From Escherichia phage U1G: a stretch of DNA of 64,000 nucleotides. The stretch lies in the sequence record NC_070872.1; one strand, given 5' to 3'. Below are positions 2,378-22,777 of this stretch, in pieces. The position numbers and the translations under genes were made by a program. Every line of letters starts with the position of its first letter. The first letter of the stretch is position 1. Below the pieces are notes generated by a model. It was given only the letters and a program-made list of their open reading frames with translations, was not told where the DNA came from and did no database searches.

Positions 2378-2570
2378 TATTCACTAACATAGAAGATGCC
2401 ATTGAAGAATGTATCTTTCGTAGATATCACACTGGTGTACAAAAACGACACTATGGTGTTGTACAACTCAATGGCTATCAAATGATTGTAAGAATTGTAC
2501 GTAACAATAAACCTTTTAACTTTATGTGGAGTACCAAACATGCGTAAGTCATTAATCATGGGAACCAAAT

Positions 2571-3044
2571 ATGGACTGGCATGAACTCTTCTCCTACCGT
2601 GAAGGCAAACTCTACTGGAAGGTTAGTAGTGGCAGAGCTAAAAGTGGGGATATTGCTGGAAGTTTCGACACGTACAGTGGATATGTATATGTCCAAGTAA
2701 AATACCGACATCTTAAGGCAGCTACTATAATCTGGGAAATGCACAACGGTAAATTGCCTGACGGTTATATGGTTGACCATATCAATCACATACGAACAGA
2801 TGACCGTTTAGAAAACCTAAGGGCAGTATCTTCCCAAGATAACAATCGTAATAGAAGTAGAGCTTCTAATAATACGTCAGGTGCAACGGGAGTAAGATAT
2901 GAAGCTGGTAAATGGAGAGTTCGTATAAAGATTAATGGTAAGCTAAAGCATTTAGGTAGATTCAACACTTTCGAAGAAGCTGTAGAAGCTAGAGAGTTAG
3001 CTAACAATGAATATGGTTTCCACTCTAATCATGGTAAGGATTAA
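2571..3044 (+). CDS. HNH homing endonuclease with AP2-like DNA-binding domain
   Basis: GKLYWK...DGYMVDHINHIRTDDRLENLR HNH core, then GVRYEAGKWRVRIKINGKLKHLGRFNTFEEA; paralogous to ORFs at 22280 and 29796. Confidence 0.8.
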   Translation: MDWHELFSYREGKLYWKVSSGRAKSGDIAGSFDTYSGYVYVQVKYRHLKAATIIWEMHNGKLPDGYMVDHINHIRTDDRLENLRAVSSQDNNRNRSRASNNTSGATGVRYEAGKWRVRIKINGKLKHLGRFNTFEEAVEARELANNEYGFHSNHGKD

Positions 3045-3238
3045 TATAATGCGTAAATCACTTATTTTAGGTAATAAATCTGACGTACAGAAGATGAAGG
3101 AACGTCTGGCTACTAAGCAACAGACATCTGAACCAGTACGTAAGATTGTTACCTTCAATCATCCTGATGCATACAAATGAACTGGCCTATCTCAATAACC
3201 ATGCTTGCACTGTTAACCTACGGTGCATTAGTAGAATT

Positions 3239-3270
3239 AGGAGTCCTCCAATAGGAGGCTCCTATTTTTT
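3239..3270 (+). terminator. putative rho-independent terminator
   Basis: aggagtcctcc/ggaggctcct imperfect hairpin followed by ATTTTTT. Confidence 0.5.
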
Positions 3271-3313
3271 ATTCTTGAATAGTTAGATATGTATTTAAAT
3301 AGGAGAAATAACC

Positions 3314-3622
3314 TTGAATGAAATAGTATGTATACTTCCTCACCAAGCTAAAGTAGCTGACAGGAATATACGGGTACATTTACCATTCCCATTAAGTAAT
3401 CCATTTGCTCGTAATGAAAGAACCACGGTAGAAGATATAGAGGTAGCTTATGAGGCTTACCTTCGTAATCGTCTTATTAGTGGTGACAAGTTAATTACAG
3501 CAGAGATGGAAAGGATTGCATCCTTTGTAACAGATAGTACAGGTAAACCCGTTGGTTTAATTGGTACTGAATCTGATGTTAACGTTATTCGTAAAATACT
3601 AATGGAGGCATTAAGCCAATGA
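3314..3622 (+). CDS. hypothetical protein (TTG start)
   Basis: ORF; AGGAG 8 nt upstream of TTG. Confidence 0.5.
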   Translation: MNEIVCILPHQAKVADRNIRVHLPFPLSNPFARNERTTVEDIEVAYEAYLRNRLISGDKLITAEMERIASFVTDSTGKPVGLIGTESDVNVIRKILMEALSQ

Positions 3623-4094: not shown

Positions 4095-4411
4095 ATAACA
4101 TTGTAGTAGTACATGATTCTACATTTACTGATGTAGATAAGATGATGCGTAATATTGATTATGTATCTCAAACAAGCCAAGCATTCAATGAAGAGTTTAC
4201 TCTGTACTGCAATGCTGAATCTCCACTGGTTCCTATCCTTAAGAAGGCAGGTTTACCATTCTCTACAGAGGACTTCCCGGAAGAACCAGACTATGTAATC
4301 TCATTTATTTATGACTTACATGATGGTTCTGAAACTAGTGAATTAGCTATGAACCAGTGGCGTAGTAAACGTCCTGTGTTCCCTTTTCAGGTACTTAAAC
4401 CAAAGGATTAA
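4091..4411 (+). CDS. hypothetical protein
   Basis: ORF; 4-nt overlap coupling. Confidence 0.5.
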   Translation: MNNIVVVHDSTFTDVDKMMRNIDYVSQTSQAFNEEFTLYCNAESPLVPILKKAGLPFSTEDFPEEPDYVISFIYDLHDGSETSELAMNQWRSKRPVFPFQVLKPKD

Positions 4412-4413
4412 TA

Positions 4414-4596
4414 ATGAGCCAACAATGCAAATGTGGCAAAGGCCATGTATCTCAATGGGATAATAAATGTGGTCATTGCCGAACCAAGAAAGAACAGCGT
4501 GAACATGAGCAAGCTCTTGACTGTGTTTATGAGGTTAAGCCTGAATCACAGGAAGACGCTATTAAATTCTATAAAGAAGTAAGGGGATTAGTGTGA
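4414..4596 (+). CDS. hypothetical Cys-rich (zinc-ribbon-like) protein
   Basis: CKCGKG...CGHC pattern. Confidence 0.45.
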   Translation: MSQQCKCGKGHVSQWDNKCGHCRTKKEQREHEQALDCVYEVKPESQEDAIKFYKEVRGLV

Positions 4597-4973
4597 AAGA
4601 GATCTTTGTATTCGGAAGTAATTTAGCAGGCCGTCATGGTGCTGGTGCAGCGAAAGTTGCATATAAGAAGCACGGTGCTCGTTGGGGCATGGGTGCTGGT
4701 CACTATGGTTGCAGTTATGCAATACCCACCAAAGACCAGAACATTAAAACAATGCCCTTAGAGGCTATTGATATGTTCGTAAAAGTGTTTTTGGGATATG
4801 CAGCAGCACACCCAGAGTGGGACTTTAAAGTAACACGCATTGGTTGTGGGTTAGCTGGATATAAGGATGAGGACATTGCTCCTATGTTTGCTAATGCTAC
4901 AGGCAATGTCATGTTTGACAAAGCCTGGAAGCCCATTCTGGGAGATGACTATATCTACTGGGGAACCTTTTAG
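4593..4973 (+). CDS. hypothetical protein with Gly-rich motif (GTG start)
   Basis: FVFGSNLAGRHGAGAAKVA...GMGAGHYG; AAGGGG upstream of GTG. Confidence 0.5.
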   Translation: MKEIFVFGSNLAGRHGAGAAKVAYKKHGARWGMGAGHYGCSYAIPTKDQNIKTMPLEAIDMFVKVFLGYAAAHPEWDFKVTRIGCGLAGYKDEDIAPMFANATGNVMFDKAWKPILGDDYIYWGTF

Positions 4974-4979
4974 GTAATA

Positions 4980-4994
4980 GCTGCTCCGCAGCTT
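4980..4994 (+). promoter_or_regulatory. Hairpin agctgc-TCC-gcagct; candidate N4-type virion-RNAP early promoter
   Basis: Same stem-TCC-stem plus TTTGG architecture as 949 and 1210; lies just upstream of the RNAP II genes. Confidence 0.4.
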
Positions 4995-9881: not shown

Positions 9882-10195
9882 ATGGCGAGCATTGACTCAC
9901 TGACCGTATGTAATACACGTCAGGCCCGTAACTTTATTATCCGTGCCCTGCAAGCAGGTAACGTACCGTTCCTGACTTCATCACCAGGCATGGGTAAATC
10001 TGCAATTATTCGTTCTGTTGCAGAAGAATTTGGTATGAAGCTGATAGACCATCGTCTGTCTACTTCTGCCCCAGAAGACTTGTCAGGCCTACCATTCCGT
10101 AATGGTGACCATGCAGAGTTTATTCCTTTCGCTGATTTATTCCCTATTGAAGGGGATGAAATACCAGAAGGGTATAATGGTTGGCTCTTGTTCCT
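9882..10195 (+). CDS. MoxR-like AAA+ ATPase, exon 1
   Basis: Walker A SSPGMGKS; reading ends ...GWLLFL at predicted 5' splice site; frame stops 2 codons later inside the intron. Confidence 0.65.
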
Positions 10196-11077
10196 TAACT
10201 AACGGGGCTTCATGAGAGTAATCTCATGTCGAAAGTTACCTAAACAGGGAACCTCTTCTAATCTGGTTGGCTCAGGTGTATACTTGAGTTTTAATCAATT
10301 GGAGACAATCCTGTGCTAAATAATGAAATTTGGAAAGATGTGCCCGACTTACCGTATGAAGTTTCCAACTTTGGCGTAGTACGCCGAAAAGAAGGAAAGT
10401 ATAAATACAAAAATAGGACACACATAAAACCGTATCTTAATAACAAAGGGTACTACTGCGTGAACCTGTACATGAATAGTAAAGTGTACAAATACCAAGT
10501 TCACCGTCTAGTAGGGTTAGCCTTTGTACCAAACCCTAATAACTATCCTATCGTTAATCATATAGATGGAAACCCTCTTAATAACCACGAGAGTAACCTG
10601 GAATGGTGTACCCAGTCTCACAACATGAAACATGCTTGGGATACTGGACTGCAATCAAACAGGCACGCTAATGCTAGTAATAAGAATCGTGGAGGCTCAT
10701 CCAAATACGTAGGTGTATCCTGGAGTGAGCAAAGACAAAGATGGTGTGCCCATATAAGGGTTAACAAGAAATCTATTGGTTTGGGGCGTTACAAAACAGA
10801 GGAAGAAGCTGCCAAAGCCTATGACTCCTATGTAACTAATAACAATCTTATACAGATTGGATACAGTACCAATTTCATTTAAACGCCAAACGACTATCGA
10901 AAACACGCAGCAATGCGGAAGTGAGTAGAGTAGGGTGCAAGCCAATGGCACTCGAAACGGTAACAGCCCTAGTAATAGGGCTTTGATATAGTCTCCTCTG
11001 CATGGTGACATGCAGCAGTCAGTATTCACTGAGTGTACTGACGGCATTAGTAGTTGCGAACTAATGTGAAGATAATG
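10196..11077 (+). mobile_element. group I intron (td-like, subgroup IA2) carrying an HNH endonuclease ORF
   Basis: 5' region CTAAACAGGGAACCTCT...GACAATCCTGTGCTAAAT and 3' core GAGTAGGGTGCAAG...CTCGAAACGG...GATATAGTCTCCTCTGCATGGTGACATGCAGC closely match the T4 td intron as recalled; ends ...GATAATG (terminal G); splice boundaries +/- a few nt. Confidence 0.7.
10313..10882 (+). CDS. intron-encoded HNH homing endonuclease (GTG start)
   Basis: HRLVGLAFVPNP...VNHIDGNPLNNHESNLEWCTQSHN HNH motif, C-terminal AP2-like YVGVSW...WCAHIRVNKKSIGLGRYKTEEEAAKAY; GGAG 8 nt upstream of GTG. Confidence 0.8.
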   Translation: MLNNEIWKDVPDLPYEVSNFGVVRRKEGKYKYKNRTHIKPYLNNKGYYCVNLYMNSKVYKYQVHRLVGLAFVPNPNNYPIVNHIDGNPLNNHESNLEWCTQSHNMKHAWDTGLQSNRHANASNKNRGGSSKYVGVSWSEQRQRWCAHIRVNKKSIGLGRYKTEEEAAKAYDSYVTNNNLIQIGYSTNFI

Positions 11078-11816
11078 CGATGAGTTCAACTCAGCCAGAA
11101 AAGAAGTAGTAGCTGCTGCATATAAACTCATACTAGACCGTATGACTGGTCAGAAAAAACTTCATCCTAATGTGATGATTATATGTGCTGGTAACAAAGC
11201 TACTGACCGAGCCATTGTTAACCCACTGGGTACTGCAATGCAGTCTCGTGTTGTCCACTTTGAAATGGAACTTAACTTCGACATCTTTGTTGAAGACGTG
11301 ATGATTCCATTTGAATGGGATGAGCGTCTGGTTGCATTCTTACATGCTAACCCGGGTTATCTGCATGACTTCGACCCAGCACATAAGAACAAAACGTTCT
11401 GTTGTCCCCGTACCTGGGACTTTGTTAACAAAGACCTCAAGAACCGTCCTGAAGGTGCTCTACCTGACGAAGATTCTATCTACTACGCAGGGCACGTTAC
11501 TGCTGGTAAGGCTACAGAGTTTGTTCAGTTTACACAGGTGTACAATCGTATGATTACGATTGAGAAGGTAGTCAAAGACCCTCTGGGCTGTGCACTACCG
11601 GAAGATAACAACCTGTGCTGGGCTACCGTTAACCATTTGGCTAATAAAACTACTGAAGAAAACTTCTCTGATGTTCTTCAGTACATTGAACGATTTAAAA
11701 CGTTCACTCATAAGATTCTGTACTTCCGTACAGTAGGCAGAGCATTGCCAGAACTTCAGGCTACCCCTGAATGGCGTAAGGCTGCTTCCAATATCTCTCG
11801 TTACATTCACGGATAA
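11078..11816 (+). CDS. MoxR-like AAA+ ATPase, exon 2
   Basis: Begins in-frame with DEFNSA (Walker B with exon 1: LLFLDEFNSA), then sensor-1-like IICAGN; spliced product ~350 aa. Confidence 0.65.
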
Positions 11817-11823
11817 TCACAAC

Positions 11824-12998
11824 ATGAACCAGATACCTCAGCACACACTTAGTGATGAACAACTCATGCGTGAGTATGACCGTATTCAGGCGCAGGCATT
11901 TCTCGGACGTAGTGCAGCATTTTTTGGTTCATTACTGTGTAGTCTTAAGTTCTCATGGAAACGTGAAGACTGCCCCACTGCATGTACTGATGGAATAGAA
12001 CTCCATTTCAACCCAGACTTCTTTATCTGGATGTGTCCAGATGCAAGAGAAACAGTGCTAATGCACGAACTCTGGCATGTGGCATATCTGCATGGCATCC
12101 GTCGTGGAAGCCGTGACCCAGAGGTCTGGAACCAGGCATGTGACCACTTCATTAATCTTCAGTTAGAAGAAGATGGATATAAGTTCACTGGTATCGACAA
12201 AGGCATTTGCAAAGACCCTCAATACAAAGGGTGGGTCGAAGAAGACATCTACGATGACCTGATGAAGAACCCTCAGAAAAGGCAGAAGCCGTCAGGGGTG
12301 CTGGAGCAGGTCTTGCTGGTGACATGAAATCTCCCACTTCGGGGCAGTCCCAGGGTGCTGTCGTCAACAACGTAGTACGAGCAATGCAGAGCCAGAAAAT
12401 GGCTGGTGGACAGATGCCCGGTAAGGGTGCTGGTCGTATGGAAGAGGTTATTACCCAATTCCTTAAACCAGTGGTTCCATGGCAGGAAGTCCTCATGAAC
12501 TTCTTTACCGACATTGACGATACTCATTATACGTGGGCCAGACCTAACCGTCGTTTTACTGACATCTATCTACCTTCCATGGAAGATGATGAAGGACGCT
12601 TACGACACTTAGCCTACTTTGAAGATGTATCTGGTTCTATTAGTAGTGCAGATTCTCTGCGATTTAACTCAGAGGTTGCCTACGTTAAGAGCCAGTTCAA
12701 TCCTAAGAAGATGTCCCTAATTACCTTCGACGATATTATTCAAGAAGAGATAGACATCACTGAAGAAGATACTTTTGAAGAGATTAAGATTACTGGTCGT
12801 GGTGGTACAAACCTGGAACCAGTACGTGATTGGATTATTAAGAATAAGCCAACCGCTGCAATCATATTCTCTGATATGTATGTTCGTCCTATGGAAGAAT
12901 TACCATTTGATATTCCTATCATCTGGTGTGTTCTGAATAATCCCAATGCTACCGTACCTTTTGGGGAGGTAGTTCATATCCCTAAAGGAATGAAATAA
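11824..12998 (+). CDS. putative metallopeptidase + vWA-domain protein (DUF2201-like MoxR partner); two ORFs in this assembly
   Basis: HELWH (HExxH) in N-part; MIDAS-like DVSGSIS in C-part; the second frame is open from 12258 with a Gly-rich linker; +1 nt at A4 (12277-12280) or G4 (12295-12298) fuses the ORFs. Confidence 0.5.
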
Positions 12999-22279: not shown

Positions 22280-22777
22280 ATGAACTGGAACCAAATATTC
22301 GATTTCGTAGATGGCAAGCTCTACTGGAAAAACTGTACACAGCCTTTTAGAAATGGCACAGAAGCTGGTTGCTTATCTGAGGATGGTTATCTAAGTGTAA
22401 GGCACAATAGAGTACTATATCTAAACCATCACATAATTTTCGAGATGCATAAAGGTAAGATTCCCCCAGGTATGGTGATTGACCATGATGACAGGAACAA
22501 ACTTAATAATTACCCAAGCAATTTAATAGCCAAAACCCAACAAGATAACACCAAAAACCAAACCATGCGTAAAAGCAATATGGCAGGTTGCACAGGTGTT
22601 CGCTTTAGAAGTGAAAGGGGTAAATGGCAAGCCCGAATTACTGTAGATGGTAAGCAAAAACACCTAGGTTATTTTACAACCAAAGAAGATGCTATATCAG
22701 CAAGAGAGGAAGCCAACATAAAGTATGGTTTCCATAAAAACCATGGAAAACCTACTGGAGGCTCCTTTGTTCGCTAA
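22280..22777 (+). CDS. HNH homing endonuclease with AP2-like domain
   Basis: GKLYWK...MVIDHDDRNKLNN, then GVRFRSERGKWQARITVDGKQKHLGYFTTKEDA; paralog of the 2571 ORF. Confidence 0.8.
   Translation: MNWNQIFDFVDGKLYWKNCTQPFRNGTEAGCLSEDGYLSVRHNRVLYLNHHIIFEMHKGKIPPGMVIDHDDRNKLNNYPSNLIAKTQQDNTKNQTMRKSNMAGCTGVRFRSERGKWQARITVDGKQKHLGYFTTKEDAISAREEANIKYGFHKNHGKPTGGSFVR

Follow-up and report, generated by a model that had tools for sequence, protein, structure and literature searches.

An insertion splits the AAA+ ATPase gene of phage U1G

We analyzed a 64,000-nucleotide stretch of the genome of Escherichia phage U1G (NC_070872.1; hereafter, the window) and, within it, the ATPase gene at positions 9882 to 11816, which is interrupted by a candidate group I intron. 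The window region is 90 to 95% identical to G7C-like, N4-like coliphages (genus Gamaleyavirus, Schitoviridae). The interrupted gene is a homologue of N4 gp24 and is annotated as an ATPase in these Gamaleyavirus genomes; gp24 belongs to the 15 ortholog groups with the highest conservation among N4-like phages (PMC5418858). As the original prediction had described, the reading frame stops just after GWLLFL and resumes at DEFNSA. The open reading frame (ORF) at 9882 to 10202 terminates in ...GWLLFLN*, and DEFNSA starts at 11079, in the same numerical frame as the first exon because the insertion measures 882 = 3 x 294 nt. The locus contains the following features:

9882-10195, + strand: exon 1 of the ATPase gene, codons 1 to 104 plus CU of Leu105; carries the Walker A motif SPGMGKS
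10196-11077, + strand: predicted group I intron, subgroup IA2 (T4 td-like), 882 nt; starts with UAACUAAC and ends with GAUAAUG, the omega G being 11077
10313-10882, + strand: intron ORF, 189 aa, predicted NUMOD4-HNH_3-AP2 homing endonuclease, in the P6 loop; GUG start codon at 10313-10315
11078-11816, + strand: exon 2; C11078 is the third base of Leu105, followed by DEFNSA... to the stop codon

Joined, the exons comprise 1053 nt and encode 350 aa. Residues 4 to 349 of this product align with positions 3 to 354 of the 356-position ATPase profile phrog_1297 in one stretch (443.8 bits), and exon 1 is 90 to 95% identical to its counterparts in intron-less relatives. The predicted ligated-exon sequence reads ...UUGUUCCU/CGAUGAGUUC..., with the slash marking the junction, and the predicted junction peptide is ...GWLLFLDEFNSAR. 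The junction codon is CU/C (Leu105), followed by GAU GAG. The intron thus lies immediately before the Walker B Asp-Glu, and joining U10195 to C11078 restores the Walker B sequence LLFL-DE. Both ATPase motifs, Walker A (GMGKS) and Walker B (LLFLDE), are found in the product. The label AAA+ ATPase is safe, with the Pfam AAA model passing its cut-off (28.7 versus 21.2 bits). The further assignment to the MoxR type that had been proposed is not established, as Pfam AAA_5 (MoxR/dynein-type) scores 17.4 bits, below its cut-off of 22. In G7C, the gene downstream of gp24 is annotated as VWA-like.

Boundaries and occurrence of the insertion

The comparison covered 57 records of related phages, including more than 50 genomes without the intron. 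Among the matches listed, all but one align as two pieces spanning just 1053 bp and therefore represent intron-less genes. A three-way alignment of the window, G7C, and NAN33P5 places the 882-nt insertion between ...TTGTTCCT and CGATGAG. With canonical boundaries taken as a 5' exon ending in U and an intron ending in G, only one boundary pair follows this rule and also keeps the frame, namely U10195 / 10196...G11077 / C11078, in agreement with the junctions first proposed. The alternative boundaries 10197 to 11078, which would give an exon sequence the same as in intron-less genes (CTT/GAT), were rejected because the intron would then end in C.

Four full-length copies of the insertion were identified, namely, those in the window, in NAN33P5, in the Logan assembly of SRR25011182, and in metagenome contig SKEL01004972.1. 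Further copies came from a metagenome scan and an exact-protein look-up; exact-pattern scans of IMG/VR with the 5' junction and with the 3' tail gave no match. All four measure 882 nt and have identical junctions, in flanks that differ by 6 to 8%. A fifth copy, in metagenome contig SKEF01000206.1, comprises the 3' part with the same 3' junction, the fetched locus being cut upstream. On the 44-kb Logan contig, gp25 is intact and an HNH gene resembling G7C gp24.1 follows downstream; the contig therefore represents a genome different from the window. An assembly or chimera artefact, or alternatively an intein, has next to no probability as an explanation of the insertion. Three other independently assembled sequences contain it between diverged flanks (91 to 94% identity), and an intein is excluded because stop codons within the insertion close the ATPase frame (TAA at 10200).

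The junction reads CT/C GAT in all four full intron-bearing copies, versus CTT GAT in the intron-less alleles examined (G7C and pSb-1). The first base of the 3' exon, C in intron-plus and T in intron-minus alleles, could be a co-converted marker or a contributor to endonuclease immunity.

Anatomy of the predicted ribozyme

The sequence flanking the intron ORF can be assigned to the helices of a subgroup IA2 ribozyme, as follows:

10192-10207, + strand: P1, exon UCCU (10192-10195) with the internal guide GGGG (10204-10207); loop 10196-10203
10211-10228, + strand: P2 hairpin, CAUGAGA-GUAA-UCUCAUG; in the minimum free energy and centroid folds
10235-10240, + strand: P3 5' strand, GUUACC, partner 10959-10964; 100% paired, 5 of 6 pairs change on both sides
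10244-10314, + strand: P4-P5 domain, two helices plus a long P5a-c extension (10257-10302)
10244-10249 with 10309-10314, + strand: P4, ACAGGG with UCCUGU; 100% paired
10254-10256 with 10303-10305, + strand: P5, UCU with AGA; 100% paired
10315-10316, + strand: P6 5' strand, GC, pairing with GC 10885-10886
10322-10329, + strand: P6a 5' strand, AAUGAAAU, pairing with AUUUCAUU at 10872-10879
10872-10886, + strand: P6a 3' strand (10872-10879), ORF stop codon UAA (10880-10882), and P6 3' strand GC (10885-10886)
10892-10897, + strand: P7 5' strand (guanosine-binding helix), GACUAU, pairing with AUAGUC 10988-10993
10898-10932, + strand: P7.1, outer AC (10903-10904) with GU (10921-10922) and inner hairpin CGCA-GCAA-UGCG (10906-10917)
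10933-10953, + strand: P7.2 hairpin, GGGUGC-AAGCCAAUG-GCACUC; 100% paired, 5 of 5 pairs change on both sides
10959-10964, + strand: P3 3' strand, GGUAAC; covariation-tested helix
10965-10982, + strand: P8 hairpin, AGCCCUA-GUAA-UAGGGCU; covariation-tested helix, also in the predicted fold
10988-10993, + strand: P7 3' strand, AUAGUC, with the J8/7 junction UUGAU just before it
10998-11066, + strand: hairpins P9 (10998-11015), P9.1 (11018-11042), and P9.2 (11045-11066); P9 100% paired, all three in the centroid fold

The P1 pairs, read from the sequence, are the splice-site wobble U10195-G10204 followed by C-G, C-G, and U-G. The pairing of P6 and P6a brings both ends of the ORF together. Both strands of P7 are the same as in T4 td, and two relatives have a compensatory U-A to C-G change in this helix. 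Between P7 and the 3' strand of P3, both additions of subgroup IA, P7.1 and P7.2, were found; among 10 introns the outer pairs of P7.1 covary (AC/GU, GC/GC, and CC/GG), as does its inner stem. The GUAA loop of P2 is GCAA in other copies, so that the GNRA tetraloop is kept. Folding was computed on ORF-deleted RNA, with an artificial GAAA loop replacing the ORF, and gave -109.4 kcal/mol (z = -3.94). The P5 extension hairpin is present in the predicted fold, and the centroid structure includes P2, the P5 extension, P6a, P7.1, P8, P9, P9.1, and P9.2.

A td-like core supported by covariation

The likeness to the T4 td intron proposed in the original prediction is borne out by sequence comparison. 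The 168-nt 3' segment of td used here matches T4 at 100%, and in its 113-nt P3-P9 core the window shares 81% identity with T4 td, more than with any other of the 12 comparators. A blastn search with the 195-nt 3' segment gave matches in 605 phage records, and the annotated matches lie in gaps that separate the two parts of td, DNA polymerase, portal, terminase, RNA polymerase beta, and nrdB genes. The homologous cores in other phages include those of the proven T4 td and nrdB introns.

For the analysis of covariation, 14 introns were cut into helices by invariant anchors, and pairs were tested on a gap-free alignment with 13 distinct cores; a plain MAFFT alignment of the ORF-deleted introns had mis-registered several helices and was set aside in favor of this anchor-based segmentation. 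Across 13 td-like phage introns and 40 pairs, 99.2% of the 520 cells form standard pairs, and 29 pairs change on both sides, with five covarying pairs each in P3, P4, and P7.2. The window's own row pairs at every tested position. None of 500 shuffles reached any of the observed covariation measures, and pairing was only 33 to 42% in slid controls, in which partners were moved by 1 to 3 columns.

In addition, 11 introns, with the window and its twin left out, served to build a covariance model of the 3' half. This model matches 10887 to 11015 over its full length with no non-canonical pair (137.7 bits; E = 2.4e-34). A leave-out nhmmer profile without the twin gave E = 6.6e-33, and a profile without any Gamaleyavirus intron still matched 10889 to 11015 with E = 1.4e-27. 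Chance is excluded as the source of the core match. The profiles and the covariance model found no further td-like cores in the 64-kb window.

These results bear on the alternative that a free-standing HNH homing-endonuclease gene, without any ribozyme, was inserted in the ATPase gene. The window contains three other ORFs of this kind, and G7C has one immediately downstream of gp24. However, the 312 nt flanking the intron ORF make up a complete td-like core, with the covariation and the 137.7-bit match described above, and the junctions follow the U...G rule and keep the frame. We consider a bare HNH insertion extremely improbable.

The predicted intron-encoded endonuclease

The ORF at 10313 to 10882, initially described as HNH-AP2, scores above the Pfam cut-offs for HNH_3 (34.6 versus 24.8), NUMOD4 (37.3 versus 23.4), and AP2 (40.1 versus 33.3). 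Its N-terminal 110 residues match I-HmuI (1U3E) with E = 2.9e-11, and the HNH motif aligns VNHIDGN with VDHKDGN and NLEW with NLRW. An identical 189-aa product is called in an independent assembly, and the nearest relatives of the ORF outside the Walker B-site intron are only 37 to 46% identical. A Shine-Dalgarno sequence, GGAG, is located at 10301 to 10304, and this sequence and the GUG start codon fall within the 3' strands of P5 and P4 and the 5' strand of P6. Because both are base-paired in these helices, ribozyme folding and endonuclease translation are probably mutually exclusive, as in the T4 introns; by this analogy, translation would be blocked in the folded ribozyme.

Sequence variation among the copies

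Among the 340 non-ORF intron bases of the four full copies, 14 positions vary. Nine of these lie in loops, bulges, or junctions and include three tetraloop changes, all still GNRA. Two form the compensatory pair 10907/10916, which is G-C in the window and A-U in the three other copies; two more keep their pairs (C-G to U-G and U-G to C-G), and the remaining one breaks a peripheral P5a pair in one copy. In the ORF, 52 of 542 columns vary, and the exons of the window and NAN33P5 differ by 7.7%. Exon bases 10191 to 10195 are invariant in the four copies, though synonymous sites nearby vary. The ORFs of the window and NAN33P5 differ at 23 codons synonymously and at 7 non-synonymously. By this comparison of copies, the ribozyme core is conserved more strongly than either the ORF or the exons, and the pattern of changes indicates that the RNA and the ORF are both under purifying selection.

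Predicted splicing and homing

Given the insertion polymorphism, the exact junctions, the colinear joined product, and the covarying ribozyme core, we consider it very probable that 10196 to 11077 is a mobile IA2 group I intron of the T4 td/nrdB type in a Gamaleyavirus gp24-type AAA+ ATPase gene. We infer splicing from the anatomy and from established group I chemistry. The gene would be transcribed through the intron, and the RNA would fold into P1 to P9.2. Free guanosine bound in P7 would then attack after U10195, held by the P1 wobble U10195-G10204; the terminal G11077 would next take the guanosine site, and the exons would be ligated as CU/C GAU GAG. Ligation would restore Leu105-Asp106-Glu107 of Walker B and thereby the 350-aa ATPase. 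Upon co-infection with an intron-less relative, the putative endonuclease would cleave or nick the relative's uninterrupted ATPase gene close to the sequence that codes for Walker B, and recombinational repair would copy the intron into the cut allele (homing).

Several observations weigh against this interpretation. P1 has only 4 bp, and for P10 no convincing complement to CGAUGAG adjoins the guide, with a possible AACU/AGUU pairing displaced from the junction. Strand positions in the covariation alignment were partly chosen by best pairing in anchored windows, which biases the alignment toward structure. Furthermore, the Rfam group I model RF00028, run in E-value mode, gave 23.7 bits (E = 0.0013) with a partly mis-registered alignment. 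Finally, intron-like anatomy is no guarantee of activity, because a g39 insertion in G7C-like phages, members of the same genus, is unspliced. A g16 insertion in such phages is spliced according to reverse transcription-PCR, which speaks in favor of the intron interpretation, and both are Rfam-negative (Babenko et al., bioRxiv 10.1101/542787). In phage 10GB (G7C-like), g39 has a similar-looking insertion of ~800 bp with a nuclease ORF, and the gene is expressed as two polypeptides (bioRxiv 10.1101/542787).

Because of the pairing bias in the alignment, tests without it were added; neither the covariance model that left out the window nor the compensatory changes seen when near-identical copies are compared share this bias. 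An Rfam search had been suggested as a check on the intron, and over the whole window it gave no match at the gathering threshold, which is 50 bits for RF00028. Nominally, this is one of the outcomes named in advance as speaking against an intron, but it is uninformative because the T4 td and nrdB introns, which are experimentally proven, also fall below the threshold (40.3 and 35.7 bits, respectively). ORF-less relatives score well with the same model, at 71.9 bits for the PaoP5 DNA polymerase intron and 69.9 bits for the SL2 td intron. The low score reflects the 542-nt ORF in P6, not an absent core. RF00028 thus misses the td-like class with an ORF in P6, and a td-like 3'-half model recovers this class cleanly.

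Some of these observations could be read in favor of the one serious alternative, in which the element descends from an intron but has lost splicing, or splices too little to matter, leaving the ATPase in fragments or inactive while only the endonuclease sustains the element. The g39 precedent in 10GB, the short P1 without an evident P10, and the low RF00028 score all fit such a state. Nevertheless, all core helices of the window intron are intact, with changes that are structure-neutral or compensatory, and the exons are still clearly conserved in all intron-bearing genomes. Without splicing, the N-terminal fragment would end in LLFLN*, the first in-frame restart would be Met126 (11142), which lacks a Shine-Dalgarno sequence, and the Walker B Asp-Glu would be missing from both fragments. 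We consider loss of splicing improbable. Translation restart giving a C-terminal fragment was also rejected, with no Shine-Dalgarno sequence before Met126 and Walker B lost.

Comparison with known introns and endonucleases

The predicted U1G intron has the same helix set as T4 td (IA2, I-TevI), from P1 to P9.2 and including P7.1 and P7.2. Besides P7, the P9 hairpin is identical, and both introns have the same AUAAUG 3' end. In both, the ORF is looped out of P6 and the intron sits in the part of a conserved phage gene that codes for a catalytic motif. The two differ in host gene (thymidylate synthase in T4 and an ATPase in the window) and in the encoded protein, which is the GIY-YIG endonuclease I-TevI in T4 and an HNH-AP2 protein in the window. 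In addition, P5 carries a 46-nt extension in the window versus a 5-nt loop in td, and P7.1 has a long two-tier form, in contrast to the simple hairpin of td.

The intron ORF has the motifs HxDGN...N and NLxW..Q.N in common with I-HmuI of the SPO1 DNA polymerase intron, and both proteins are encoded in phage group I introns. However, the C-terminal DNA-binding part of I-HmuI consists of helical/helix-turn-helix modules, whereas that of the window ORF is AP2. I-HmuI nicks one DNA strand.

Within the genus, the g16 intron of G7C-like horse phages can be likened to the U1G element by its description, as an insertion of ~800 bp with a nuclease ORF in a core gene. It differs in its host gene, which encodes an RNAP2 subunit. 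The g16 insertion is absent from the window, where g15 and g16 are colinear with G7C.

Insertion sites across the ATPase gene family

It had initially been thought that no introns were known in this gene of N4-like phages. This is contradicted by earlier reports. HNH genes split the gp24, DNA polymerase, and gp43 homologues in Vibrio phages JA-1 and VCO139, where introns were suggested (Fouts et al., PMC3670811), and in Pseudomonas phages ZC03 and ZC08 a homing endonuclease lies within the ATPase, a protein of 350 aa (Amgarten et al., PMC5418858). Moreover, in GenBank record JF974296, the gp24 homologue of Pseudoalteromonas phage pYD6-A is annotated as a joined coding sequence. HNH-bearing insertions in the gp24-type ATPase gene of Vibrio phages JA-1, VCO139, and phi 1, Pseudomonas phages ZC03/ZC08, pYD6-A, Escherichia phage Pollock, and Shigella phage pSb-1 have the same host gene as the U1G intron. 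Their 3' cores are td-like and of one family with the U1G core (nhmmer E = 1e-8 to 1e-16 for sequences outside the training set), and they carry related NUMOD4-HNH ORFs (35 to 44% identity to the window ORF). However, they occupy four sites other than the Walker B site, and the ribozyme was not modelled in any of the earlier reports.

Sites were mapped by tblastn for exon boundaries and by nhmmer for intron cores. The ATPase gene family has five occupied insertion sites, given here in window residue numbering:

37/38 (Walker A): JA-1, Pollock
67/68: pSb-1, phi 1, ZC03
105/106 (Walker B): only the window, NAN33P5, and three uncultured assemblies
119/120: JA-1, Pollock
216/217: second intron of NAN33P5, pYD6-A

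The Walker B site and its intron-ORF pair appear to be undescribed, while insertions in gp24 genes were already established.

Individual records illustrate this distribution. NAN33P5 (OZ035750.1), a wholly unannotated record, has a second, paralogous td-like intron of 865 nt at 2531 to 3395, between FCCPR and TWDF (window 11411/11412). It contains its own HNH ORF of 187 aa, which is 35% identical to the window ORF, so this ATPase gene holds two introns. Shigella phage pSb-1 (NC_023589) has an unannotated td-like intron at 1831 to 2698, with HNH gp63, at PEDL/SGLP; its exons are listed as the unrelated ORFs gp62 and gp65. The pSb-1 junction codons are recoded relative to G7C (TTA TCT to CTT AGT, still Leu-Ser), a change suggestive either of co-conversion, the donor having diverged, or of selection for P1. 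Pollock (NC_027381) has an ORF-less apparent intron of ~390 nt in the Walker A codons (SPGI/GKS) at ~751 to 1140 and another at 1384 to 2227, with HNH gp32, at AAA/YKL, its ATPase being annotated as three small ORFs. JA-1 is occupied at both Pollock sites, each with an HNH gene.

Related td-like ribozymes with different HNH genes thus occupy at least five positions in this gene, including Walker A and Walker B. A tentative reading, which we rate as possible but rather doubtful, is that the Schitoviridae gp24-type ATPase gene is a multi-site intron hotspot in which introns may spread between sites by ribozyme-guided (reverse-splicing-like) transposition. At their different sites, the window and pSb-1 introns share an exon end CCU, an intron start UAACUAA, and a GGG(G) guide 1 to 2 bases on. 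Ribozyme-guided transposition, in place of endonuclease retargeting alone, would fit this likeness.

In the record of every annotated relative with such an element, two or three small, unrelated ORFs stand in place of the ATPase (pSb-1 gp62/gp65, Pollock gp31/gp33, JA-1, and ZC03), and recognizing the intron restores a core gene. The profiles phrog_21479 (68 aa) and phrog_16335 match only the first 67 or 187 ATPase residues, and phrog_30358 matches only the C-terminal part of gp25; all three look like gene fragments resulting from unannotated introns or frameshifts. With five occupied sites, one of them at the Walker B Asp-Glu codons, this gene lends itself as a natural system in which to study the choice and change of targets by homing elements. 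Gamaleyaviruses are used in phage-therapy cocktails, and mobile endonuclease elements can bias the outcomes of co-infection in such cocktails. The current understanding of group I introns is unchanged by these findings.

Other genes also contain multiple td-like elements. The large terminase gene of Klebsiella phage FKP3 (PP895363) has two back-to-back td-like introns, at ~826 to 1113 and ~1162 to 2166, which its record shows as small hypothetical ORFs; one of the two contains an HNH gene, and the other is ORF-less. In AR9, at least four cores of the td-like family lie in the virion RNA polymerase beta gene.

Other features of the window

Further HNH endonuclease ORFs lie between complete genes at 2571 to 3041, 22280 to 22777, and 29796 to 30233, one of them separating the exonuclease gene from the primase gene. 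Near these three ORFs, no td-like core was found. They are probably free-standing homing endonuclease genes, because only some of the relatives have them.

The segment from 4403 to 4981 has no counterpart in G7C, which has gp11.1, gp12, and gp14 there. The only other covariance-model match in the window is a very weak one at 4553 to 4662 (13.4 bits; E = 0.084); it was treated as chance, because the segment reads as coding sequence.

Downstream of the ATPase gene, the gp25 homologue (VWA-like/DUF2201; 11824 to 12998) is split into ORFs of 167 and 224 aa, versus a single 391-aa ORF in G7C and the Logan contig. The break near 12293 to 12327 corresponds to a 1-nt deletion in a G-run (G7C, GTCGGGGGGAGC; window, GTC-AGGGGTGC). 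The cause could be an error in sequencing, a true frameshift mutation, or a split that recurs. In pSb-1, the gp25 homologue also consists of two ORFs (gp66 and gp67), and phrog_30358 comprises such C-terminal pieces.

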